Shown here: positions 1,660 to 52,188 of the stretch, in pieces
Layout of the letters: every line of letters begins with the position of its first letter
How positions within the stretch are numbered: position 1 is the stretch's first letter
Source: Escherichia phage LHE287
Strand: one strand, 5' to 3'
Length of the DNA: 64,000 bases
Sequence record: PP761450.1
Notes under the pieces: generated by a model
The model's database searches: none
What the model saw: only the letters and a program-made list of their open reading frames with translations
What the model was told of the DNA's origin: nothing
Program-made: the position numbers and the translations under genes

Positions 1660-2853
1660 ATGAACAAGACCATTTTCGATACCCTTTCCCTCGACCGCAA
1701 TCTGGTCCATTGGGAAGATTATCTCTACAAGCACACCCCGTGCGAACTTGTCGTCAACCCCGAAACCAATCAGCAGGTCTGGTTCAAGCGTGAAGATTAT
1801 TTTGCGCCGCTGTCCAATTATGCAAATGGACAGCAGGGCATCAACGGCAGCAAACTCCGCCAGGCCATCTGGTTGATGGTTGAGCACCTCAAGGCCGGAG
1901 GCTCCCCTGACATCATCCATGGTACTGTCGTTGGTAGTCCGCAGTCCCCTATGGCGACGGCAGTCTCTCGGCACTTCGGTGGCAAGACAACCACTGTACT
2001 CGGAGCGACCAAACCCACCACCTGTATGAACCATGAAATGGTGAAAATGAGCGCCTGGTTCGGTAGTGAGTTCAACTTCGTCGGCTCGGGTTACAACAGC
2101 ACCATCCAGCCGCGCTGTAAGAAGTTGATCGAACAACAGAATCCAAAGGCGTACTATCTGGAATATGGTATCACCCTCGACCATACAGCGCATTCTCCTG
2201 AGCGCATCGCTGGCTTCCATATGCTGGGTGGCGAGCAGGTTGCCAACATCCCAGACCATATCACCGACCTGATTATCCCAGCCGGATCGTGCAACTCTTG
2301 CACAAGCATCCTGACCGGGCTGGCAATGCATCCGAAGCCTAATCTGAAGCGTGTGTATCTGATTGGCATCGGTCCTAACCGCCTTGACTTTATCGAGAGC
2401 CGTCTGCGCATCATCGGCAAACATGCCAATCTGCCGCACATTGTCGACTTCACCCGTCGCTATCACGACAACCCAGACTATGTACACGGCAAGAAGGAGC
2501 TTCAGCATGCCTCTAAGAGCGTTTCGCTGGCTGGCCTCCTAAGTGGTATCAGGAAGAAGGAAGAGCCAGAGGTCGTGCTTCCTCGCTTTGAGGTACACCA
2601 TTGGGATCTTCACACCACTAATTGGGTTCGTTACAATGACCTGATGGAATATCAGTGGGGTGATATCGAATTGCATCCTCGCTATGAAGGCAAGGTCATG
2701 ACCTGGGTTCAGCAACACAAGCCCGAGTTGCTGAACGAGAACACTCTGTTCTGGATTGTGGGCAGCAAGCCGTACATTGAGCCAATGAAGACAGCATGCC
2801 CTGAGCTGGCTATCCCCGAAGCAGTACCTGTAAACGAATTCACCCCTTCCTGA
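1660..2853 (+). CDS. fold-type II PLP-dependent enzyme (ACC deaminase / D-cysteine desulfhydrase / Trp-synthase-beta superfamily)
   Basis: N-terminal motif FKREDYF...GINGSKLRQA resembles the KRED...GGNKxRKLE PLP-lysine region; later loop PAGSCNSCTS in the position of the phosphate-binding glycine loop; RBS AGGAGA. Confidence 0.55.
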   Translation: MNKTIFDTLSLDRNLVHWEDYLYKHTPCELVVNPETNQQVWFKREDYFAPLSNYANGQQGINGSKLRQAIWLMVEHLKAGGSPDIIHGTVVGSPQSPMATAVSRHFGGKTTTVLGATKPTTCMNHEMVKMSAWFGSEFNFVGSGYNSTIQPRCKKLIEQQNPKAYYLEYGITLDHTAHSPERIAGFHMLGGEQVANIPDHITDLIIPAGSCNSCTSILTGLAMHPKPNLKRVYLIGIGPNRLDFIESRLRIIGKHANLPHIVDFTRRYHDNPDYVHGKKELQHASKSVSLAGLLSGIRKKEEPEVVLPRFEVHHWDLHTTNWVRYNDLMEYQWGDIELHPRYEGKVMTWVQQHKPELLNENTLFWIVGSKPYIEPMKTACPELAIPEAVPVNEFTPS

Positions 2854-5628: not shown

Positions 5629-8628
5629 ATGACCGTTTTCTATACGAACGTTGCCCGCAGGGGCAATGACCTGTTGATTCGAATTGCAGATGACATGGGT
5701 AATCGCCGTCTGTTGAAAAAGAAATTCGAACCCACTCTCTATTTACCCACGGCTGACTATTCAAATGTTGAAAAGGTCGGTCTTCTCAATGAACCCCTGG
5801 TAGCCAAGCAGTTCCCTTCCATGCGTGACGCTGACAACTATCTTGAAGAGTACAAGGAAGTCCAGGGTGCTTCCATTTACGGACAGACCGATTATGCATA
5901 CCAGTTCATCGCCCATAGCTTTCCTGGAAAGATTGAGCCGGATTACTCCAACATCCATATTGCTAACCTCGATATCGAAGTGTTCTCCGCCGGGTGGAAA
6001 GACGGAAAGATGACCAAAGGTCCATTCCCTCACCCAACCATTGAGCAGCAGACGTTCAAAGGGAATGAGGCGCGCATTCGCCGCTTCCATAAACAAGTGC
6101 TGGCTAACCATGAATTTGTCCGTGAGCACTTCCCTGGTTCTTTCATCAGCAACAACGTCACTGATCAGTTCCCTATCATTGATAGCAATGGCAAGATCAC
6201 CCAGGACATGAATGCGGCGTTCCCCATTACCCTGATCCAGCTTCAGGATATGGCGACCAATAAGTTCATGGTCTGGGGTATGCCCTGTGCCAAAGATCGT
6301 AACAAATTCGCATACGACACCGAAGACAAAGAGATCGGCGGCCTTGAGGTTGTTTATCAGGAGTTCACCACCGAACAAGATCTGCTGCGCTCGTTCCTAG
6401 ACTTCTGGTCACAGCGTCAGTTCGACGGCTGGACAGGCTGGAACATTGAGACGTTTGATAGCCCTTATCTTGTTGAGCGCATGAATCAGGTTCTGGGTGA
6501 AGCCGAAACATCGCGCCTCAGTCCTTGGGGTATCATTAAGAAGCGTATCATTCGCGATAAGAAGGGCGATATCACGACGTATCAGTTCGTGGGTTGCCCT
6601 ATGCTCGATTATATGCAGATCTACAAGAAACACACGTACACCACCCGTGAACGCTACTCTCTTGACTGGATTGCGTATTGTGAGCTGGGTGAGAAGAAGA
6701 TGGACTACAGTGAGAGCAAGTCGCTCTTTGATCTGTACTTCAACGACTACTGCAAACACACCCGATATGGTATCAAAGACGTTAAGCTGGTATGGCGACT
6801 TGAACAGAAGCTGCGCCTGCTCCAGCTGATGTTCGTCCTGGCCTACCGCACCAAGTCCAACTATGAAGACGGTCTGGGCACTGTGGCTCCGTGGCTGGCC
6901 ATGTGCTACTATCGCCTGTACGAGAAGGGGATAGTGCCTAAGATCCAGCGTGTATACGATGGTCCGACCGACTTTGAGGGCGCATACGTCATGGATGTGA
7001 CACCAGGAATCTACTTCTGGGTCTTCTCGGAAGATTTGAACTCCCTGTATCCTCACATCATACAGCAGTACAACCTCGGTCCAGAGACTATCGTTGGCGA
7101 CAAACACCAGCGCCGCGAGATTATTGAGGCTATGTGTGAAGAGCTGGCTGCTCAGATGAATAACATGGCAACGCCGATGCACAAACGTCGGTTGATGAAA
7201 GCCCTTCACGACAAGCTGTTGCGTGCGGTTGACGAACGCCTGCAGGTTGTTGATGAGTTGGTTGCCCTGGGTGAGTTCCACTTTGAAACCCTGCGCCGCT
7301 ACAACGTGTCGTTCACGCCGAACGTTCAATTCTTCAGCAACGAGAAGATGTCGTTCCTGTCTGAAATCATGCGTGGTATCTACAGCGACCGTAAAGTAGA
7401 GAAGGCCAAGGGTCTGAAGTATGAGCAGTGGGCTGGCTGGTGTAAAGAGATGTCGAAGGGCGACTTCCATCTTGAGTCTGCCATGAAGTCTCGCTACTAT
7501 GACCCAGAGTGGTATGAAGAGCACAAGAACATTGATCTTGATGCCCTGACCGAAGTGATGAAGAAGTGGGAAGACCTGGGCGTTGCTCAAGATACCCTAC
7601 AGCAAGGTCTGAAGATCTTGATGAACGCAGGTTATGGCGCTATCTCGAACGTCTGGTTCAAAGAGTACTTCAACCTCAACATTGCCGAAGCCATCACCAC
7701 ATCCGGTCAGCTGATCAACAAGTGGAACAAGCGTTACACTGATGACTATCTGAACAAGCTGTGTGGTACAACAGGCCAGGACTTCGTCATCGCAGGTGAT
7801 ACCGACTCCAACTACATCTGCATTGAGCGTCTTGTCAAGCAGTTGTGGCCTGATGTTACTGACCATCATGCTATGGTTGATAATATCGACCAATGGATCA
7901 AAGACAACTACCAGCCGAAGACCAATGAGTGGGCACAGCTTCTGTGTAACACCATGAACGGATTTGAACAGCGCATGGTATGGGAGCGTGAGGTCATTGC
8001 GTCAGCCGCTGTCTGGCGAGCCAAGAAGATGTATGCCATGGCCGTGTACGACAGTGAGGGTATCAAGTACGAGAAGCCGAAGATCAAGTTCAAAGGTCTG
8101 GAAGCCCGCAAGTCCACCACGCCGGAATGGTGTCGTGAGCGTCTTGTCAAGTGTTATGAGAAGATCCTACTCGGCACCGAAGAGGAAGTACAGGCGCTCA
8201 TCTCCCAGTACAAAGAGGAGTACATGAAACTCTCTGTAGACGATATCGCCAAGGCTTCCGGCGTGTCCGACATAGAGAAGTGTGTGGCTGCTGACGGATC
8301 GTTCATCTCTGGTGCTCATTTTGCTGCCAAGGCGTGTGTGGGCTACAACCGTCTGGTTGAGAAGAACGAAGATCTGGGTCTACCGATGATCGAGTCGGGT
8401 GATAAGGTACAGATGGTGTTGTTGAAGCCGGGCAACCCGTTTGGGCAGAACTACTTTGCATATCCTGAGTTCTTCCCCGAGGAGCTTGGTCTGGGCAAAT
8501 GGGTGGATTATCAGGCGGCCTTTGAGAAGTCCTTCATTGATCCGATTCAGTCTATCCTCGACGTGGTCGGCTGGTCACACAAGCGCCGTGTGAACCTTCT
8601 TGCCATGATGCAAAAGAAGAAAGGTTGA
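5629..8628 (+). CDS. 43: family B DNA polymerase (T4 gp43-like), 999 aa
   Basis: Exonuclease motif LDIEV, polymerase motif A DLNSLYP, motif C GDTDS; size and T4-like genomic context. Confidence 0.95.
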   Translation: MTVFYTNVARRGNDLLIRIADDMGNRRLLKKKFEPTLYLPTADYSNVEKVGLLNEPLVAKQFPSMRDADNYLEEYKEVQGASIYGQTDYAYQFIAHSFPGKIEPDYSNIHIANLDIEVFSAGWKDGKMTKGPFPHPTIEQQTFKGNEARIRRFHKQVLANHEFVREHFPGSFISNNVTDQFPIIDSNGKITQDMNAAFPITLIQLQDMATNKFMVWGMPCAKDRNKFAYDTEDKEIGGLEVVYQEFTTEQDLLRSFLDFWSQRQFDGWTGWNIETFDSPYLVERMNQVLGEAETSRLSPWGIIKKRIIRDKKGDITTYQFVGCPMLDYMQIYKKHTYTTRERYSLDWIAYCELGEKKMDYSESKSLFDLYFNDYCKHTRYGIKDVKLVWRLEQKLRLLQLMFVLAYRTKSNYEDGLGTVAPWLAMCYYRLYEKGIVPKIQRVYDGPTDFEGAYVMDVTPGIYFWVFSEDLNSLYPHIIQQYNLGPETIVGDKHQRREIIEAMCEELAAQMNNMATPMHKRRLMKALHDKLLRAVDERLQVVDELVALGEFHFETLRRYNVSFTPNVQFFSNEKMSFLSEIMRGIYSDRKVEKAKGLKYEQWAGWCKEMSKGDFHLESAMKSRYYDPEWYEEHKNIDLDALTEVMKKWEDLGVAQDTLQQGLKILMNAGYGAISNVWFKEYFNLNIAEAITTSGQLINKWNKRYTDDYLNKLCGTTGQDFVIAGDTDSNYICIERLVKQLWPDVTDHHAMVDNIDQWIKDNYQPKTNEWAQLLCNTMNGFEQRMVWEREVIASAAVWRAKKMYAMAVYDSEGIKYEKPKIKFKGLEARKSTTPEWCRERLVKCYEKILLGTEEEVQALISQYKEEYMKLSVDDIAKASGVSDIEKCVAADGSFISGAHFAAKACVGYNRLVEKNEDLGLPMIESGDKVQMVLLKPGNPFGQNYFAYPEFFPEELGLGKWVDYQAAFEKSFIDPIQSILDVVGWSHKRRVNLLAMMQKKKG

Positions 8629-8654
8629 TTCAATAAACCAAAGGGGGATATAAT
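8626..8654 (+). promoter_or_regulatory. sigma70-like promoter TTGATT-17-TATAAT with the -10 in a hairpin loop
   Basis: TTGATT overlaps the polymerase stop codon; 17-nt spacer; TATAAT forms the loop of hairpin GGGGGA-TATAAT-TCCCCC. Confidence 0.45.
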
Positions 8655-8690: not shown

Positions 8691-9032
8691 ATGAAACTCA
8701 ATAAGATTCTTCTGGTGTGTGCTCTGGCTTTCTCTACCACTGCGTGTTCCACCCTTCTGGACGTTGCTTCTACTGTAGACCTTGACGCGCCGACGTTCAC
8801 CAATGAGCAGGCCGTGTCCAAGATGGAAGACACCATCAAGGCGCATGCAGCACTGGACAACACTACCCCAGGTCCGCTCCAAACTGTCTGCAACTATGAC
8901 GATTCCATCCAGGAAGACGAAACTTACCACTGCATCACCTACGTGAAGCAGGCCTCCGTCGTTCTGTATGCAGATTGTACCGAAGAACAGTGTGTTGCTA
9001 CAGGCTACGATAAAGTTGAGGAAGACAAATGA
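8691..9032 (+). CDS. putative secreted protein or lipoprotein (113 aa)
   Basis: Signal-peptide-like N-terminus MKLNKILLVCALAFSTTAC with Cys after the hydrophobic core; internal ATG chosen for its AGGTGA RBS. Confidence 0.5.
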   Translation: MKLNKILLVCALAFSTTACSTLLDVASTVDLDAPTFTNEQAVSKMEDTIKAHAALDNTTPGPLQTVCNYDDSIQEDETYHCITYVKQASVVLYADCTEEQCVATGYDKVEEDK

Positions 9033-9805
9033 ACAACCTGGTTTGTATCTATGATATGAAATCAAAGGTCGGTGGCCTGTATCGCGTCCTCGTGGATGTT
9101 GACCTGACGTTGGTCGACAGCCTCTCCCCTTGGGTGCAGTGGTTTAACGAAGAGAATCTCAGCTTATCCAAGCATTATGACGGTCATGGACCAGCGCCGT
9201 TCCAGCCGATTACCAAAGAGTGTTATATGTCCCATGCTGGCGACCTGGCTATTCTGATGCGTGAACGTGCGCATCCGGCGTGGCTATACCATGAAGTCCA
9301 ATTGGGGATGCACAAACAACGTGTGCCAAGCGGTAACGATCCTATGGACTGGTGGCGTCGCCCTGACTTGTACGCCAAGATGAACCCACTTCCTGGCGCT
9401 TACGAGTTCCTGGTGAATCTGAAGAAGATTCTGCTCGAAGACTTTGACAATGTTGAATTCATCGCAGTGTCCAAGTGTGAGCCGGAACACGAGCGCAGCA
9501 AGCGCCAGTTTGTCTATGACAAGTTCCCTGGTATCTTCAACGGGTTTGTCAGCACCGACGAAAAGCATCTGCTGGCTGGCGATGTCCTGATTGATGACAA
9601 TCCGAAGTATGTCGAGCCATGCGGCCTGAACAACATCTTTGTCATCTTTGTTCCTCAGGGCAATTATGAAAAACTGGATCTTTCGAATTCGGAAGACATG
9701 CTTTATATTAAACCAGTAGAAGGCCAGAATCACTTCGACTTCCTGAACCGCAATATTGTCGAAGTGGTGAACCGCCTGATTAGTCATTATCAATACGTCC
9801 GATAG
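9029..9805 (+). CDS. HAD-superfamily phosphatase, candidate 5'(3')-deoxyribonucleotidase
   Basis: HAD motif I VDVDLTLVDS near the N-terminus and DD motif VLIDDNPKY; start overlaps the upstream stop. Confidence 0.45.
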   Translation: MNNLVCIYDMKSKVGGLYRVLVDVDLTLVDSLSPWVQWFNEENLSLSKHYDGHGPAPFQPITKECYMSHAGDLAILMRERAHPAWLYHEVQLGMHKQRVPSGNDPMDWWRRPDLYAKMNPLPGAYEFLVNLKKILLEDFDNVEFIAVSKCEPEHERSKRQFVYDKFPGIFNGFVSTDEKHLLAGDVLIDDNPKYVEPCGLNNIFVIFVPQGNYEKLDLSNSEDMLYIKPVEGQNHFDFLNRNIVEVVNRLISHYQYVR

Positions 9806-9814
9806 GAGGACATC

Positions 9815-10120
9815 GTGCAAGAACAATCCAAGTTCGGGGAAACCCCAGACAAGCATTCCGGTGATAGCGACATGGATGGTGTGATTATCTATGTGAACAA
9901 CTTCATTCGTCAGCAGGAGACTCCAACTCCTATCGGTGCAGCCAAGGCTCTTCATGATGTACTGGTGAAGATCGGCCAGCGCTCTGAAGCAGATGAAATC
10001 TTCTATAACTTCGACGACCAGTATAAAGTTAAGTTTGAAGAGAATGGCCACCCACAGGTTGCTGTGTTCTGGGCACCTTGGCTGGGCGGCGTGAGCTGGC
10101 GTATTGAGGATGCTGTGTAA
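9815..10120 (+). CDS. hypothetical protein (101 aa), GTG start
   Basis: GTG start with strong AGGAGGA RBS; stop overlaps the next start (TAATG). Confidence 0.5.
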   Translation: MQEQSKFGETPDKHSGDSDMDGVIIYVNNFIRQQETPTPIGAAKALHDVLVKIGQRSEADEIFYNFDDQYKVKFEENGHPQVAVFWAPWLGGVSWRIEDAV

Positions 10121-11037
10121 TGGCAAAAATTATCGTAGTGAAAGGAACCAGCGGTACGGGTAAGGGCACCCGTGTTGTCCAGTTCATCGAATGGCTGCGC
10201 ACTAAGCTGGAGCCTACCGAACTGACCTACACCGTTGGTGACAAGACTCGCCCGTTTGGCTTGAAGTTCGGAGAGCTGAAGTTAATCTTCGTTGGACAGT
10301 ACACCGTGTCTAACAAATCCGGCCTGGCTTCCTGGACTTCAATGGATGCAATCCATGCTGCTACAGGCTCAGGCGATATTGCTCGTGATCTAATCAAGTG
10401 CTGGTTGGTTCAGGGATACACTCTGGTGTGCGAGGGTGAACCCCTCATGCTGTCGGACAAATGGCGTCCTGAATGGATGTTCAAGAACTATCCGATTGAA
10501 TCATTGGCGCTGCTGTACTTTGCGTACCCCGACCGCTATCAGTACGATGCTCGTATCCGTGGTCGATCTGGTAAAGAAGCAGGGAACTCCGGCTGGTCGC
10601 GCAACGAATCTTACTACAAGGAGTTTGAGAAGTCGAAGGCCGAAATGCTGGCGCTGGGCTTCACTGTGGCTGTTGATGATTACAGCGGACAGGATATCCT
10701 GTATAAATCACCGGATGCCAACACCCAGGAGTTCACGACCAAACAGCAGTCCGAGTTGGCGGTACTACCGTTCGACGCCCCGCTGTGGGTTGTGGGTAAT
10801 GCGATTTGTCATCAGATACGCTCTGAACTGCGCGGTGTTGACATGCACACCAAAGACTTCTACGCCTACTGTGAAACCAATCCGATGACTCGTGAAATCG
10901 GCGGCCAGGATCCTTTGGCGCACAGAGTCCCTGAGAAGCCGCAGAAGGCATCCAAAACTAAAACCAAGGCGAGCGCCCAGCCAGAAGCAACGAAGGCAGC
11001 GTCGCGCTCTCTCCTTGACCTGATGAAGAAGGGGTGA
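10120..11037 (+). CDS. P-loop kinase, paralog of 51529..52188; candidate 5-hmdU DNA kinase
   Basis: Walker A GTSGTGKGT at the N-terminus, Walker-B-like LVCEGEP; shares motif order with the second P-loop protein; basic low-complexity C-terminus. Confidence 0.5.
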   Translation: MAKIIVVKGTSGTGKGTRVVQFIEWLRTKLEPTELTYTVGDKTRPFGLKFGELKLIFVGQYTVSNKSGLASWTSMDAIHAATGSGDIARDLIKCWLVQGYTLVCEGEPLMLSDKWRPEWMFKNYPIESLALLYFAYPDRYQYDARIRGRSGKEAGNSGWSRNESYYKEFEKSKAEMLALGFTVAVDDYSGQDILYKSPDANTQEFTTKQQSELAVLPFDAPLWVVGNAICHQIRSELRGVDMHTKDFYAYCETNPMTREIGGQDPLAHRVPEKPQKASKTKTKASAQPEATKAASRSLLDLMKKG

Positions 11038-11039
11038 TC

Positions 11040-11237
11040 ATGAAACGGTTGTCTAATTATCTGTTGTTCATTGGTCTGGTTATGGCAGCCGTTTCAATGT
11101 GTACTGCCCTAGCCTATCATTTCACCCCTCTGGACTTAACAACCTCAGAGAAGTTGAACGTGACTGTGATGTACTGTATTGGCGCGGTGATGTCTATCGG
11201 CGCTGCTGGTTACAAAATATTCAAGGAACCAAAATGA
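11040..11237 (+). CDS. small membrane protein (about 65 aa)
   Basis: Two hydrophobic segments; ATG with GGGGTGA RBS. Confidence 0.4.
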   Translation: MKRLSNYLLFIGLVMAAVSMCTALAYHFTPLDLTTSEKLNVTVMYCIGAVMSIGAAGYKIFKEPK

Positions 11238-11611
11238 AAATTCAAATTCCTCGCGATGCTGTGGCTGTTGCGATCGACTACACCGGAAACGCCAAGCACA
11301 TTACTGCCGTGCGCCTGATTCCTGAAAAGAACTGCGTCATCCCTCAGTTCCAACTGAATGCCAATCCGTCATCCAAAGACTTCGGCAAGTGGTTGCAGGC
11401 TGCTCCGTTCCGTACCCAGACGAACGCTCAGATGTTCATCTCGGGTAAGACTCACACTGCAGCCCGTCTGTGGTTCGTGACCGCTGACCGTCGCTTTGTC
11501 GATATGTGGGAACGTCCGATGGGGTTCGTGAAGCCGGAAGATATTCAGCTGGCTCCTGAGCCTGAAGCTGTGGCTCCTGAAGAGGAAGCGAAAGATGCAT
11601 CATTTATCTAA
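11234..11611 (+). CDS. hypothetical protein (125 aa)
   Basis: Start overlaps the upstream stop (ATGA); internal ATG of the track ORF 11099..11611. Confidence 0.45.
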   Translation: MKIQIPRDAVAVAIDYTGNAKHITAVRLIPEKNCVIPQFQLNANPSSKDFGKWLQAAPFRTQTNAQMFISGKTHTAARLWFVTADRRFVDMWERPMGFVKPEDIQLAPEPEAVAPEEEAKDASFI

Positions 11612-12830
11612 AATGCCGACGGGCTATACGCCTCCGGCTGAATGGAAGTACCCGATTGACCTGGCTGTTGATTATCGCAAGCCTGAGAATCGCATGTACC
11701 TGCTCAAGGCTTGGGTGGAGGCGCTGTCCTACACAGAAGAGCACAACCAGCAGATGCGTCTGATGGACTATGCGATCGAAGTCACTGAAGGCATCAGCCT
11801 CGAACAGAAAGTCGAGCGCAAGATCTGGATGGCATTCCTGTGGGGTTGTTGCTATAACGCCGTCGGGCCGTGGACGATCTACAGTGAGTTCCCTGTGCCA
11901 CCTCAGTCTAAGGAAGAGATGCAGCGCTTCTCTGATTGGTATAATCTGAACTTTGATCGCATGCGATTCGATACCGACTGTCGCTACCGCAAGTCCAAGA
12001 TGATTCCGTGTGTTCAGTCCTATATTGACTGGCTGGCTGGTCGTACTCAATATGACGCTTTCCGTGGGATGTTGGTGTGCATCGATAAGACAGAACAATT
12101 CACCCAGCTGTGGGACACGGCGATGTCCTGGAAATACTTCGGTCGCCTGAGCGCCTGGAACTTCCTAGAAGCCCTGAACATGGTCTTCGGGAACGAATAC
12201 ACCATTGACGTCCCTGGCTTCATGCTGCGTGATCGTGATGGAAGCGAGTCCAACCGTAATGGCGCGGCGTTCTTGTCCAACCGTGACGATTGGGTGACTA
12301 AACACGGGAAGAAAAAGATCAACGGTTGTCCTATCACGGATGAAGAGTGTGACATCCTTGAGGCCGACCTTGAGCAGGCGTTCCAGGATTGTGTGGCTGA
12401 GTTCGGGCACCTGACGTTCATCAACCGCCTGAACTTTGAAACCTCCGGCGCTTGTTGGCTGAAGAAATTCTTCCGACTGAAGAATACCCGTTACATCGGG
12501 TGGGACGCAGAGCGTACCTGGGATGAGATAGACTACATGGAACGCGTCTGGCCTGAATACTCCTGCGCAGCGCTCTGGGAAGCCCGTTCGCTCTGGCTGC
12601 CAGATACCCTGTTGTGCGAAAAGGCTCCTGCAGGGCACGTTCCAGGCGTCCAGAAGTGGAAGATGCCTGTATTCTTTGAGACTGGTGTTCCTCTGCATAT
12701 CTGGCACCTGCAAAAGGGTACGCGCTGGGAACCGTCCGAGGTGTGTACGAACCTGAAGATGCCTGTGCGTAAGGTTGAGGACAAGTCGAAGTCCAGCAGT
12801 GTCAACCTCATGGCACTCTTGAAACGCTGA
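11595..12830 (+). CDS. hypothetical protein (411 aa), Trp/Cys-rich; candidate DNA-modification enzyme
   Basis: ATG with GAGGAAG RBS; co-transcribed downstream of the P-loop kinase; no motif recognised by eye. Confidence 0.5.
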   Translation: MHHLSKMPTGYTPPAEWKYPIDLAVDYRKPENRMYLLKAWVEALSYTEEHNQQMRLMDYAIEVTEGISLEQKVERKIWMAFLWGCCYNAVGPWTIYSEFPVPPQSKEEMQRFSDWYNLNFDRMRFDTDCRYRKSKMIPCVQSYIDWLAGRTQYDAFRGMLVCIDKTEQFTQLWDTAMSWKYFGRLSAWNFLEALNMVFGNEYTIDVPGFMLRDRDGSESNRNGAAFLSNRDDWVTKHGKKKINGCPITDEECDILEADLEQAFQDCVAEFGHLTFINRLNFETSGACWLKKFFRLKNTRYIGWDAERTWDEIDYMERVWPEYSCAALWEARSLWLPDTLLCEKAPAGHVPGVQKWKMPVFFETGVPLHIWHLQKGTRWEPSEVCTNLKMPVRKVEDKSKSSSVNLMALLKR

Positions 12831-13057: not shown

Positions 13058-13099
13058 TAAAGGGGAATGGGTTATTATTAGCCCGTTCCCCTTTCTTTT
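13058..13099 (+). terminator. rho-independent terminator
   Basis: AAAGGGGAATGGG-ttattattag-CCCGTTCCCCTTT followed by CTTTTT. Confidence 0.6.
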
Positions 13100-43640: not shown

Positions 43641-43853
43641 TCACTTCCTCATCAGTGAGAGTAGGTTGACCGTAGCCGGACGCGCATCAGGGGCGTAGAA
43701 GACGTCCTGAGAGTGCCTCTTACAGCACGGGCAATCCTTCGTGGCGATTACACAGGGAGCCTTGTCCACGGCAAATCCAGCGGCTTCGGCTTCCTTCACA
43801 GTGGTGAATGGCATGTAGGCACTTGTACCCTGCCCTCCGCATGAACATTCCAT
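43641..43853 (-). CDS. small Cys-rich protein (about 70 aa)
   Basis: ECSCGG ... KDCPCCKRH; ATG start one codon inside the track start. Confidence 0.4.
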   Translation of the reverse strand: MECSCGGQGTSAYMPFTTVKEAEAAGFAVDKAPCVIATKDCPCCKRHSQDVFYAPDARPATVNLLSLMRK

Positions 43854-43969
43854 CAACGTTTCCTCTTAAAGGGGATGACCAGGGCTATGATGAGAAGCAT
43901 AGCTGTAATCATCCCACATGCTATCAGACCAAAGGCGAACGACTTCAGAACAAACTCAATCAAATTCAT
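43853..43969 (-). CDS. small hydrophobic peptide (38 aa), not in the ORF track
   Basis: MNLIEFVLKSFAFGLIACGMITAMLLIIALVIPFKRKR; GAGGAAATT RBS; ATGA and TGATG overlaps with both neighbours. Confidence 0.3.
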   Translation of the reverse strand: MNLIEFVLKSFAFGLIACGMITAMLLIIALVIPFKRKR

Positions 43970-49920: not shown

Positions 49921-50486
49921 TTACGTTCTCCGTAGAATTTAACGAACGGTGCCCAACCATCAAATGGATTGAGGAATTCGTAGTCCACTTTCATTTGGTC
50001 AATGAAAGCCTCTATATCGTCCTCTATGATACCAGCACGGTCGGCCTTTGAAATACGGGTGATAGGACATTTCGTACTCAGCGCCCATTCATATTCCTGA
50101 GGGGTACGCAGATCGCTCACGATATAATGGACGTGGGGGTTCTGCTCTACCAGAGGAAGCTGGAAGCGCTTGAAGAATGCCAGGAACAGATCGGGTTGTA
50201 CGTAACGCAAGCCCGTATCGCTGCCTAGATGAAGCCAGATCTGCCGTGGAGTTAAGCCCTTGGGGTTATCAGGGTGCACGTAAGGAACGTCCTTCACGGC
50301 ATCCTCTACCTCCGCTGGCAGCCATGGATAGATGTAGTTGGCCACACGGCGCAGTTCATCTGAGAACGAAAGGCGCTGGATGTCCATATCACCCTGTAGT
50401 TGGTGATAGCTGATGAGGGACTCCAAACAGAAGTCCTTACCGGAGCGCTTGCGCCCCGTAAAGAATTCAAGATTTGGATACATCAT
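49917..50486 (-). CDS. 1: deoxynucleoside monophosphate kinase (T4 gene 1-like)
   Basis: P-loop GRKRSGKD matches the T4 dNMP kinase GxKRSGKD signature; overlaps ThyA-like gene by ATGA. Confidence 0.65.
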   Translation of the reverse strand: MMYPNLEFFTGRKRSGKDFCLESLISYHQLQGDMDIQRLSFSDELRRVANYIYPWLPAEVEDAVKDVPYVHPDNPKGLTPRQIWLHLGSDTGLRYVQPDLFLAFFKRFQLPLVEQNPHVHYIVSDLRTPQEYEWALSTKCPITRISKADRAGIIEDDIEAFIDQMKVDYEFLNPFDGWAPFVKFYGERK

Positions 50487-51529
50487 ACTACACCTTCCAG
50501 GAACTTAGGATCAATGATCTTGCGGTCAACCGGGGAATGGGTGAGCGCGATGTTCAAGCCATGATCCTGAATCAGGTCCAGGTTAATGAGCTTTTCGTTC
50601 AGTTTGCAGTGCAGACAGTACGCCATCTGTACAATCAGGCCACGATCAGCATCATATTCCTTCAGGTGGGCGACCACAGTTTCCCACGGGCTGCCGATAT
50701 CACAGTGATGAAGCACACCAGTGAACAGATTGCGGATATGGTTCTGGTTGGTCACGTTCGTGAAGTGAATCATGGAGTTGATGAACCCAGCTTCTACTTT
50801 GGTGTCCTTCGTGATCTTGCCAAGCTGCTTCTGGCTGACTTCATTGTTGTAGTAATGAAGATTGTTAGAGAATAGCTTGTACTGACCGACATCAACATCT
50901 AACACCTGAGCAATCACTTCCTGAAGAATAGAGAACTCAATGAAGTTGATTGAACTCATCCCCCACAGAACATCCTGTGAGCGGTTGATGACCGTCAGGT
51001 TCAGACGACCTTCAACGATGGAGAACAACAGAGCCAGATTACACACCATGTCCTTGGTCTTCGCTTCGCCGCTCTCGCTGAACTTCGCCAGACCAGCATC
51101 CGAATCTAGAGCCGGGTCATAGATGGTGAGGTACGCCTGGCGAGTGTTTGGGTTCTTGCGCAGGCGGTTGATAACGCTATCCAGCTGGCCATGGGCGTAC
51201 AGACGCGGACCATAAGCAGCTCGCCATGTTACCCCATCATCCGAAAAGTTAGCAGCGCGAGGCAATACGCGTGACAGGAACTTTATGTCGTTGCGACCTG
51301 ACAACACCCAGAAGGTCTCGCCGATGGCAGCGATAGCCGATGAGTTGCGACCTTCAACGGAGAGCCAGCGGTCACGGATGTCGGCGACGGTTATGGTCAC
51401 GCCATCAAGGAAGCGGGTGCTATCAGTATTGATTTCAGCATTACCAGGATCAGATTCGATCCCGAATTCACGGATAGCCAAGACAGCCTGCTTCAGCATG
51501 TCATTGTTGTTAATTGCTTTGATTTCCAT
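50483..51529 (-). CDS. thymidylate-synthase-family enzyme; candidate dUMP hydroxymethylase
   Basis: ThyA-fold motifs RQAYLTIYDP, Cys in KDMVCNLALLF, and NRSQDVLWGMSSINFIEFSIL (RSxD ... NI/F region; Asn suggests a dUMP substrate); the hydroxymethylase role is inferred from context. Confidence 0.6.
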   Translation of the reverse strand: MEIKAINNNDMLKQAVLAIREFGIESDPGNAEINTDSTRFLDGVTITVADIRDRWLSVEGRNSSAIAAIGETFWVLSGRNDIKFLSRVLPRAANFSDDGVTWRAAYGPRLYAHGQLDSVINRLRKNPNTRQAYLTIYDPALDSDAGLAKFSESGEAKTKDMVCNLALLFSIVEGRLNLTVINRSQDVLWGMSSINFIEFSILQEVIAQVLDVDVGQYKLFSNNLHYYNNEVSQKQLGKITKDTKVEAGFINSMIHFTNVTNQNHIRNLFTGVLHHCDIGSPWETVVAHLKEYDADRGLIVQMAYCLHCKLNEKLINLDLIQDHGLNIALTHSPVDRKIIDPKFLEGVV

Positions 51530-52188
51530 CAGATACTCCCAAAATCACGACAGAGGAATGCCATCACAGCCTGGTCTACTGTTAGGCCGTGAGACTTCAT
51601 CATACCCGCAGCCACCGTAGGGAACAAGTCTTTATGTCGTTGACGATGGTCATGAACTCTCTCCCACTTCTCGACCACCAGACTTTCATTGAAGTCCACA
51701 CCACCGTTACGTGATTTAACGCGGGAGATACACGTTTCAAGGGGAGTGTCCATAAAGAGCACAACCAATTCACGTGGTGGGCGTGTCAGGCGGGGGATCC
51801 AAGAACTCAATAATGTGGATGGAATGATACCTTCGAAAATCACATCATATTTCAAGTATTCTGGTTGGTCAGCAATAGACAACGCGAACAACATCTGCTC
51901 AGTGTCCTTCAGGGAATCAACCCCCTTGGACTTCGACTTGTCATATTTACCGATACAGACCACGTTGAACGAAGGACAGACAGTCAGCATGACCTTGCCG
52001 TTATGGGTCACGACATACGCCTGAGGATCCCTCTCCGCCAGCTGAGACGGCACAGTGGATTTACCGCTACCATTGGAGCCTTTGACGTAGTAGATTTGCC
52101 CTCGTGCTGGGTAGATCCCCTTTACGACGGGTGGTTTAAAGAATGTGTGGACGGGGCGCTTCATCAGCCCCTTCAGGGAGTAGGACAT
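51529..52188 (-). CDS. P-loop kinase, paralog of 10120..11037
   Basis: Walker A GSNGSGKST, Walker-B-like DVIFEGIIP; same motif order as the other P-loop kinase; first gene of the coupled operon. Confidence 0.5.
   Translation of the reverse strand: MSYSLKGLMKRPVHTFFKPPVVKGIYPARGQIYYVKGSNGSGKSTVPSQLAERDPQAYVVTHNGKVMLTVCPSFNVVCIGKYDKSKSKGVDSLKDTEQMLFALSIADQPEYLKYDVIFEGIIPSTLLSSWIPRLTRPPRELVVLFMDTPLETCISRVKSRNGGVDFNESLVVEKWERVHDHRQRHKDLFPTVAAGMMKSHGLTVDQAVMAFLCRDFGSI

Follow-up and report, generated by a model that had tools for sequence, protein, structure and literature searches.

The stretch of DNA analyzed here, 64,000 nucleotides of Escherichia phage LHE287 (PP761450.1; hereafter the window), is from an Agtrevirus-like phage of the Ackermannviridae, with 95.8% DNA identity to the E. 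coli phage AV101. Its plus strand bears a co-oriented block of genes coding for an NT5C-family protein, which may shape nucleotide pools, a DUF7254 protein, a 305-aa P-loop kinase, two small proteins and a 411-aa protein that we identify below as an amino acid:DNA transferase (Table 1). Counting from the DNA polymerase gene (polymerase, NT5C-like, DUF7254, kinase, two small ORFs, transferase), this is also the gene order of phage ViI, a Kuttervirus of a different host-range lineage. A previous sequence-only reading of this DNA had described the kinase and the 411-aa protein as two frames on one strand with two small ORFs between them, and the coordinates and translations recovered here agree with it.

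Table 1. Features of the modification locus and of related genes in the window
Feature	Position	Strand	Basis
PLP-dependent decarboxylase, ViI gp226 ortholog	1660..2853	+	91.6% identical to gp226 over residues 30-424; weak PALP match, E 1.5e-7
Family B DNA polymerase	5629..8628	+	tail RRVNLLAMMQKKKG at nt 8584-8625, type as in kinase and transferase
NT5C-family 5'(3')-deoxyribonucleotidase-like protein, ViI gp239 ortholog, same block	9029..9805	+	Pfam PF06941, E 2.8e-8; 75% identical to gp239
DUF7254 protein, stop overlapping the kinase start codon	9815..10120	+	Pfam PF23912, E 1.5e-51; TAATG junction
5-hydroxymethyl-dU DNA kinase type 2, ViI gp243 ortholog	10120..11037	+	Pfam PF18747 HMUD2; 84% identity to gp243
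Walker A P-loop GTSGTGKGT, kinase residues 9-17	10144..10170	+	translation; same letters in ViI gp243
Kinase tail RSLLDLMKKG, after Lys/Ser/Ala/Pro-rich low-complexity linker	11005..11034	+	tail type changes with polymerase tail across lineages
65-aa hydrophobic protein, ViI gp244-like	11040..11237	+	phrog_4514; 36% identical to gp244
125-aa protein, ViI gp245-like	11234..11611	+	phrog_4163; 58% identical to gp245; no Pfam match
Amino acid:DNA transferase (AADT / aGPT-Pplase2), ViI gp247 ortholog	11595..12830	+	Pfam PF18724 ADDT; 89% identity; AlphaFold/Foldseek
Catalytic motif E282-T283-S-G-A-C287	12438..12455	+	homolog alignment; hhalign to PaMx11 gp46
Transferase tail SVNLMALLKR, after disordered linker (residues 384-403, pLDDT < 50)	12798..12827	+	AlphaFold; tail comparison
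Terminator-like hairpin, 16-bp stem then T-run, ending the co-oriented block	13059-13094	+	consensus scan only
70-aa Cys4 Zn-ribbon-like protein, Vi01_049c ortholog, tail ATVNLLSLMRK	43641..43856	-	phrog_4789
Divergent thymidylate-synthase-family enzyme, candidate dUMP hydroxymethylase, ViI gp66 ortholog	50483..51529	-	77% identity; Pfam Thymidylat_synt, E 2.7e-16
5-hmdU DNA kinase type 1, ViI gp67 ortholog	51532..52188	-	Pfam PF18748 HMUDK_HMUD1, E 3.6e-109; 88% identical to gp67

Each junction in the kinase-to-transferase block, as read from the sequence, is overlapping or nearly abutting: the DUF7254 and kinase genes overlap at 10118-10122, the kinase stop (11035-11037) is closely followed by the ATG of the next gene, the two small ORFs share an ATGA (11234-11237), and the second of them overlaps the transferase gene by 17 nt (11595-11611). 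The terminator-like hairpins inside the block are only weak ones with stems of 5-7 bp (+ 9679-9696, + 10237-10252 and - 10728-10711). Given these tight junctions, the weakness of the internal hairpins and the 16-bp-stem hairpin that follows the block, the co-transcription of the kinase and the 411-aa gene proposed earlier is plausible. The terminator-like sites total seven, which is within the range of shuffled sequences (mean 4.1, sd 1.9). A scan for promoters returned four sites against 4.4 expected from shuffles, and as this is no excess we make no claim for the promoter-like site at 8625-8654.

The kinase is matched over its full length by the HMUD2 model (residues 1-304 on profile positions 1-298 of 298; E 1.5e-158, 527 bits against a cut-off of 25), and lies, as does its ViI ortholog gp243 (YP_004327565), between the DUF7254 gene and the transferase. 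ViI gp243 converts 5-hmdU in DNA to 5-PmdU in vitro (PMC8989533), and the 84% identity to this assayed enzyme settles the identity of the kinase as a 5-hmdU DNA kinase, which is how it had been interpreted from its architecture and from the Walker A motif that is indeed present. The sequence-only reading had itself named the contrary outcome, namely a small-molecule nucleotide kinase (guanylate or dNMP) that does not use DNA as a substrate, and the labels in public resources lean that way: orthologs of the kinase are termed “guanylate kinase” in RefSeq, and phrog_4409 is named likewise. We regard this as exceedingly improbable, because neither a guanylate-kinase nor any other nucleotide-kinase model in Pfam or NCBIfam matches the protein, in contrast to the end-to-end HMUD2 match, and because the closely related ViI enzyme phosphorylates the modified base within DNA. 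None of the kinase, the transferase and the decarboxylase discussed below is covered by an NCBIfam model.

The 411-aa protein had been described as Trp/Cys-rich, and does contain 20 Trp (4.9%) and 12 Cys (2.9%). It had also been called uncharacterised, lacking a recognizable motif and perhaps representing an undescribed family, and in this the sequence-only reading was mistaken. The profile comparison with the aGPT-Pplase families that it had proposed yields a match to ADDT (formerly aGPT-Pplase clade 2; E 7.3e-60, 203 bits against a cut-off of 26.2), a domain carried by 60 of 60 database homologs and one for which there is both biochemistry (Lee et al. 2021; PMC8989533) and a structure, that of the gp46/PUGT protein of phage PaMx11 (PDB 8z2n; PMC11472151). 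The ortholog, ViI gp247, is a serine:DNA transferase with in vitro activity, by which isotope-labelled serine is incorporated (PMC8989533), and the 89% identity to it bears out the suggested role of the 411-aa protein in the transfer of an amine or amino acid. Most GenBank records call the protein “hypothetical protein”, and a new family would be consistent with this, with the want of an NCBIfam model and with the lack of any PDB match by sequence; nevertheless, the probability of such a family is next to nil in the face of the Pfam score, the characterized ortholog and the match of the fold to 8z2n. At least 80% of the 411-aa protein is covered in 347 of the 378 matching phage records; together with the two Pfam E-values, this conservation places both reading frames far beyond chance.

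The residues E282, T283 and C287 of the transferase are invariant among 30 homologs with identities reaching down to about 40%. An hhalign comparison, which is weak (E 0.047, probability 1%) and was used for motif placement only, sets them on E243, T244 and C247 of PaMx11 gp46, which line the active site in the gp46/PUGT structure (PMC11472151); further, mutants show that ViI gp247 and M6 gp51 cannot do without this Cys and Glu (PMC8989533). Sequence searches of the PDB came back empty, with phmmer giving zero matches for both the kinase and the transferase and a 30-sequence profile giving only chance matches (Rab-26, COX7c); it took a structure model searched with Foldseek to connect the transferase to PaMx11 gp46. 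The AlphaFold model, a structure prediction that had likewise been proposed as a check, is all-helical with a pLDDT of 90.4, and its sole confident match in the PDB is 8z2n (probability 1.00; next match 0.08). With a TM score of 0.56 normalized to the target, this likeness is one of core similarity only. On the model, the transferase is predicted to have the two-helix-bundle, DNA-glycosylase-like fold of PUGT.

PaMx11 gp46 and M6 gp51 are glycine:DNA transferases of the same Pfam family. The former, which acts on 5-PmdU in DNA, shares with the LHE287 transferase the all-helical fold and an E-T-x-x(x)-C motif; however, the two are only about 13% identical, and the LHE287 protein is about 120 residues longer, with one extra residue between the Thr and the Cys. 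By orthology, the LHE287 enzyme would employ the serine hydroxyl as the nucleophile, forming an O-C bond, as against the N-C bond formed by the glycine amine in gp46. The nucleophile is known to vary among members of the ADDT family (Table 1 of PMC8989533), and a nucleophile other than serine, such as the glycine of M6/PaMx11, the putrescine of PhiW-14 or the glutamate of SP10, would result in a different final base. In this regard, W146 and K150, which hold the glycine in gp46, correspond by the weak alignment to L185 and N189, suggesting that the substrate pockets vary within the family. We consider a departure from serine very unlikely all the same: the transferase is 89% identical to a serine-specific enzyme, the accompanying PLP decarboxylase shows 92% identity to gp226, the Vibrio Ackermannviridae-like phages carry homologs of only ~48-50% identity and one of these, 1.255.O, still makes 5-NeOmdU, and the same base has been measured in an Ackermannviridae phage of E. 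coli (phiHS2).

The complete ViI-type set of gp66, gp67, gp243, gp247 and gp226 orthologs co-occurs in the window; besides the kinase and the transferase, every other gene of the pathway lies within it, as orthologs of gp63, gp65, gp66, gp67 and gp226. The region is, in all likelihood, part of the Ackermannviridae (ViI-like) thymidine-hypermodification pathway that yields 5-(2-aminoethoxy)methyl-deoxyuridine (5-NeOmdU). In its first step, judging from homology, the divergent thymidylate synthase, which scores far under the NCBIfam equivalog cut-offs for that enzyme (59 bits against 327), would make 5-hydroxymethyl-dUMP, for the polymerase to incorporate in place of T. Next, as shown for ViI gp243, the kinase would transfer phosphate from ATP to the 5-hydroxymethyl of 5-hmdU in duplex DNA to give 5-PmdU; the type 1 kinase, of an unrelated clade, could perform the same phosphorylation. 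The transferase, as shown for ViI gp247, would then flip the base, with Cys287 attacking C6 and the phosphate leaving to generate an exocyclic methylene, to which the side-chain hydroxyl of free L-serine would add with Glu282 as the general acid/base, producing 5-O-serinyl-thymidine. Finally, the PLP decarboxylase would strip CO2 to give 5-NeOmdU, the last step demonstrated for ViI gp226 (PMC8989533), and DNA modified in this way resists many restriction endonucleases. We infer the modified base and the serine specificity of LHE287 from the orthology to the ViI enzymes and the presence of the gp226-type decarboxylase.

This module is real but already known, its kinase and transferase being close copies of the ViI enzymes (Lee et al. 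2018 PNAS; Lee et al. 2021 NAR), with the same P-loop, Glu/Cys catalytic motif and C-terminal tail type. 5-NeOmdU has been measured in the phages ViI, CBA120, CBA6 and Vibrio phage 1.255.O, and separately in phiHS2; a review holds the pathway genes to be conserved across the Ackermannviridae, and the Shigella phage Ag3, about 91% identical in DNA to this region, is among the 5-HMUDK-encoding ViI-like phages of Lee et al. 2018. The window adds another Ackermannviridae genome with a known pathway rather than new biology. As most GenBank records still label these proteins “hypothetical”, “guanylate kinase” or “terminase small subunit”, the finding is useful for annotation, and the pathway assignment helps predict the restriction-enzyme resistance of the phage DNA.

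The adjacency of kinase and transferase is kept in Vibrio phages down to 48-50% identity; both small ORFs are missing from the interval between them in phiMAM1 and the Vibrio phages. The 65-aa protein, which by eye apparently has two membrane-spanning segments and whose gene has an alternative GTG start at 11034, has diverged considerably from its ViI counterpart. The 65-aa and 125-aa proteins are probably not core to the module but lineage-specific passengers outside the chemistry.

The one new lead is a C-terminal tail that both enzymes have in common with the DNA polymerase, and through which they may be linked to the replication machinery. At their extreme C-termini, the kinase, the transferase, the DNA polymerase and the Zn-ribbon-like protein of the window share a tail of the type VNLLxMM followed by basic residues, as does the helical paralog gp160 of ViI, whose gene lies outside the window, in which no ortholog of it is found. 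The low-complexity linker ahead of the kinase tail is variable between ViI and the window, and in the transferase model the disordered linker is succeeded by a short helix at residues 405-410. The type 1 kinase is without the tail and ends in ...FLCRDFGSI, and the PaMx11 modification enzymes have no tail in common, gp46 being without a polymerase-like one. The tails of the transferase homologs sort into lineage-specific classes, and in the Vibrio relatives (K/R)(K/R)LW takes the place of the VNLLxMM type at the end of each of the five orthologs. Altogether, we found six matched tail sets in five styles (window/ViI, phiMAM1, Vibrio K444/D531, L018, L016 and L015), the Salmonella phage 38 having been left out of the comparison as its record is fragmented by frameshifts. 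Tail scores average 26.1 within a genome versus 10.5 between lineages, a difference equalled in 0 of 5000 label permutations. A role as a basic DNA-binding tail was considered and rejected as an overall explanation, since the tails are neutral or acidic in L018 (EENALW, TTNDLW) and acidic and T4-like in L015 (SLDFLF type).

A parallel is offered by the T4 DNA polymerase gp43, whose C-terminal tail is the epitope that binds the gp45 clamp (PMC2988020) and which ends in ...KASLDFLFG, at a position equivalent to the tail of the LHE287 polymerase (the gp43 and gp55 tails were read from the T4 genome). As in T4/RB69 gp43, gp55 and gp33 (PMC2988020), the window proteins present a short hydrophobic C-terminal epitope behind an unstructured linker, and in both systems the epitope is common to the replicative polymerase and otherwise unrelated proteins. 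The differences are that the window-type and Vibrio tails are basic (VNLLxMM-KK or KKLW) where that of T4 is acidic (SLDFLF), and that the putative clients in the window are DNA-modification enzymes. Unlike T4 gp55, the ViI late sigma factor has no such tail, neither tail type being present in the late sigma factors of ViI and K444.

The matched tails point to a putative tethering at one hub of the replisome, for which the sliding clamp, encoded outside the window, is the likeliest candidate. From the peptide shared with the polymerase and its concerted change across lineages, we would give roughly even chances to the proposal that the type 2 kinase, the transferase and the gp160-type paralog, but not the type 1 kinase or the PLP decarboxylase, are clients of the clamp, with phosphorylation and amino-acid transfer coupled to the replication fork. 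If so, this tethering would account for the two kinase paralogs, one tethered and one free, and may have a part in selecting the thymidines, about 16-40%, that get modified, making the tail a simple handle on how partial modification patterns are set. It would also constitute a sequence-level argument for hypermodification being physically coupled to phage replication. Sharing of a tail between modification enzymes and the polymerase was not found in the literature searched, but the idea of coupling was raised earlier for the T4 alpha-glucosyltransferase, a precedent for a phage DNA-modifying enzyme working on the clamp during replication that is itself without a gp43-like tail. It has recently been disputed: the interaction of that enzyme with gp45 was reported in vitro, but was not reproduced in a 2025 preprint using C-terminally tagged proteins.

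Among other proteins inspected for these tails, the gp33-like protein of K444 ends in KTKRLF, which is near the Vibrio tail KxKKLW, and the ViI and window counterparts have KSKKL(I/V) as their last residues, which differs from the enteric VNLLxMM tail. The Zn-ribbon-like tail bearer weakly matches the N-terminal end of a DNA-ligase PHROG.

The kinase matches the Pfam family PF18747, '5-hmdU DNA kinase 2', over its whole length (E 1.5e-158), and the 411-aa protein encoded downstream of it matches PF18724, 'Amino acid:DNA transferase' (E 7.3e-60); they are 84% and 89% identical, respectively, to gp243 and gp247 of Salmonella phage ViI. These matches and the orthology bear out the sequence-only reading in pairing a 5-hmdU DNA kinase with an enzyme of amino-acid transfer. 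Its suggestion that the 411-aa protein might represent an undescribed family falls, as the protein is a member of PF18724 whose ViI ortholog has already been assayed. In ViI, gp243 and likewise gp67 turn 5-hmdU in DNA into its 5-phosphomethyl form; gp247, assayed as purified protein, attaches L-serine via its hydroxyl to give 5-O-serinylthymidine, and gp226 decarboxylates this product to 5-(2-aminoethoxy)methyl-deoxyuridine (5-NeOmdU) (PMC8989533, Lee et al. 2021). The 'guanylate kinase' label that RefSeq and PHROG attach to this clade-2 kinase finds no support from any guanylate-kinase profile; likewise, the clade-1 kinase, the gp67 ortholog, is mislabelled 'terminase small subunit' in RefSeq and PHROGs.

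A conserved cysteine and a nearby glutamate are essential in the ViI transferase (PMC8989533). Across an alignment of 30 homologs, reaching down to ~40% identity, E282, T283 and C287 of the window's protein are invariant, and a profile-sequence alignment places them on E243, T244 and C247 of gp46 (PUGT), the glycine:DNA transferase of phage PaMx11; these three gp46 residues line the active site in its crystal structure. The AlphaFold model of the transferase is all-helical (pLDDT 90.4), and its sole confident match in the PDB is the same gp46 (8z2n), with a probability of 1.00 against 0.08 for the next structure; searching the PDB by sequence alone returned no match. In a weak alignment, the glycine-holding W146 and K150 of gp46 correspond to L185 and N189 here, of which N189, together with the adjacent W188, is invariant in the ViI-like clade. 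As judged from these residues, N189 and W188 may influence the specificity for O-linked serine as against N-linked glycine.

The ORF listing confirmed the kinase and the 411-aa protein at the positions first read from the sequence, with two small ORFs between them (table). The kinase begins MAKIIVVKGTSGTGKGT, with its Walker A motif at residues 9-17 of the translation, and the transferase contains 20 Trp and 12 Cys residues. The genes are closely packed: the upstream gene and the kinase meet in a TAATG, the kinase stop codon lies 2 nt from the first small ORF, the two small ORFs are joined by an ATGA, and the second overlaps the transferase by 17 nt. A scan for terminator-like hairpins inside the block returned only weak ones (5-7 bp stems), in numbers not above those of shuffled sequences, and one with a 16-bp stem lies beyond it; co-transcription of the kinase-transferase block is plausible. 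Upstream lies a family B DNA polymerase of 999 aa, and the ViI gene order is the same (polymerase, orf239, orf240, orf243, orf244, orf245, orf247). In Serratia phage phiMAM1 and two Vibrio phages the small ORFs are missing and the kinase and transferase genes directly abut, which indicates that the linkage of the two enzymes is conserved and that the gp244- and gp245-like ORFs are passengers, probably dispensable ones. The phrog_4514 ORF is just 36% identical to its ViI counterpart, against 84-89% for the flanking genes. In phages AV101, RPN242 and Ag3 and in Vibrio phage D531, a SegD-like homing endonuclease gene occupies precisely the junction of the DUF7254 and kinase genes, and the same site is empty, with the TAATG junction, in the window, ViI and Vibrio phage K444; being occupied in some of the members compared and empty in others, it is polymorphic in two distant lineages.

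Coordinates of the features in the window and, where a handle is given, in the other sequences compared
Feature	Coordinates	Strand	Remarks
PLP decarboxylase	1660..2853		92% identical to gp226
DNA polymerase tail	8584-8625		...RRVNLLAMMQKKKG
NT5C-like nucleotidase	9029..9805		within kinase gene block
Upstream gene/kinase junction	10118-10122		TAATG; homing endonuclease site, empty
Kinase ORF	10120..11037	+	305 aa
Kinase 2 tail	11005-11034		...SRSLLDLMKKG
Small ORF 1	11040..11237		65 aa, hydrophobic, phrog_4514
Small ORF 1/small ORF 2 junction	11234-11237		ATGA
Small ORF 2	11234..11611		125 aa, phrog_4163
Small ORF 2/transferase overlap	11595-11611		17 nt
Transferase ORF	11595..12830	+	411 aa
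Transferase residues 185-189	12147-12161		aligned with gp46 W146, K150
Transferase tail	12798-12827		...SSVNLMALLKR
Terminator-like hairpin	13059-13094		16-bp stem, beyond block
Zn-ribbon protein	43641..43856	-	70 aa, Cys4, phrog_4789
Zn-ribbon protein tail	43644-43676	-	...ATVNLLSLMRK
Divergent thymidylate-synthase-family enzyme	50483..51529		far under NCBIfam thymidylate-synthase cut-offs
dNMP-kinase-like and dUTPase_2-family genes			adjoin the preceding gene
Clade-1 kinase (kinase 1)	51532..52188	-	PF18748, 88% identical to gp67
Homing endonuclease insertion	L001 4124-4810		
Homing endonuclease insertion	L007 7517-8200		
Dioxygenase-transferase-kinase arrangement	L015 8616-11734		Logan contig
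Helical domain-kinase fusion	L017 932-2779		PF18723 + PF18748
Tandem HMUD2 kinases	L018 8531-9988		

The remaining pathway genes were located by tblastn with the ViI proteins and by Pfam matches (table); the genes for the gp160-type helical paralog (PF18723) and the sliding clamp both lie outside the window. From these homologies, the published ViI pathway is the best explanation for the module: hydroxymethyl-dUMP would be made and then incorporated, the kinase would act on the resulting 5-hmdU in DNA, the transferase would carry out a Cys-dependent transfer of serine, and decarboxylation would yield 5-NeOmdU, the last three steps having been shown for the ViI orthologs. The kinase-transferase module is already known. 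The 5-kb region matches 275 phage records, nearly all from Ackermannviridae (of Salmonella, Klebsiella, Escherichia, Dickeya and Serratia), with 95.8% DNA identity to Escherichia phage AV101 and ~91% to Shigella phage Ag3, and a 2018 paper named Ag3 among the phages encoding 5-HMUDK. Measurements found 5-NeOmdU in ViI, CBA120, CBA6 and Vibrio phage 1.255.O, and put it at 16% of dT in one E. coli Ackermannviridae phage; a 2024 review describes the pathway genes as conserved across the family.

A listing of the C-termini of the window's ORFs uncovered like tails on four proteins, namely the DNA polymerase, kinase 2, the transferase and a small Zn-ribbon protein (table). The AlphaFold model shows the tail of the transferase as a short helix (405-410) following a disordered linker (384-403). 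The complete ViI genome was translated in six frames, and every ORF of 40 aa or more was scanned with a loose pattern of the motif; matches within the last 14 residues occurred only in the same four proteins and, as a weak hit, in a tail-tube protein (expected number 0.5), and ViI gp160 ends ...GSVNLLDRLKKPE. The K444 orthologs of exactly the four tailed proteins and gp160, the latter two being gp160 at 44% identity (E 1e-116) and the Zn-ribbon protein at 27% (E 3e-6) among the more diverged, end instead in ARKLW, TKKLW, TRKLW, TKRLW and TRKLW. No other annotated K444 gene ends in the same motif; the tail of its gp33-like protein is the related KTKRLF, which resembles the Vibrio tail, and in the enteric phages the gp33-like tail reads KSKKL(I/V). 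The marine contig L018 shows yet another set (polymerase ...SALW, HMUD2 copies ...NDLW and ...SSLW, transferase ...NALW, helical paralog ...NSLW), as do L016 (...SGFFGN, ...NAFFS, ...SVFDI) and L015 (transferase ...ELSLFDF, polymerase ...SLEDFFS, kinase ...EFFDIFH). Among the window, ViI, K444, L015, L016 and L018, the tail switches in concert by lineage between the types VNLLxMM-KK, KKLW, xxLW and the T4-like SLFDF. It is absent from kinase 1, the PLP decarboxylase, RNase H, the ligase and the late sigma factor.

The tails group by genome and not by family of protein. Scored without gaps by BLOSUM62 over their last 12 residues, unrelated proteins within a genome average 26.1, against 10.5 for members of the same family from different lineages. 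For these tails, hand-picked from proteins showing the motif, the difference gives a Mann-Whitney p of 1e-17, and none of 5000 label permutations equalled it. Such concerted switching points to a shared docking site, and it is very probable from the sequences that the tailed proteins have some docking partner in common. Such a shared partner is the simplest reading; the sliding clamp would be the likeliest candidate, one toward which we lean by a narrow measure. The L015 tails are like those of T4 gp43 (...SLDFLFG) and gp55 (...SLDFLYEAND), which are established epitopes for binding the gp45 clamp (PMC2988020). The thymidine-hypermodification papers searchable outside the subscription literature do not feature a clamp in this sense, and the analogous claim of an association between the T4 alpha-glucosyltransferase and gp45 is currently disputed. 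The study of this module has thereby exposed a specific and cheaply testable hypothesis, that of replication-coupled hypermodification.

The Zn-ribbon protein bears a weak resemblance (E 0.006) to the N-terminal part of a family of phage ATP-dependent DNA ligases, and its gene lies immediately upstream of the ligase gene in K444; it might link the ligase to the clamp as an adaptor. We also observed alternative arrangements of the module. In L015 a transferase, 67% identical to that of the window, is flanked on one side by a Tet/JBP dioxygenase and on the other by a Ploopntkinase3-type kinase that stands in place of HMUD2, which hints at an alternative route in which 5-hmU arises via oxidation of thymine in DNA. 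In L017 a gp160-type helical domain is fused to a clade-1 kinase, a hint that gp160 partners with kinase 1. Finally, L018 encodes two tandem HMUD2 kinases, each bearing the tail of its lineage.
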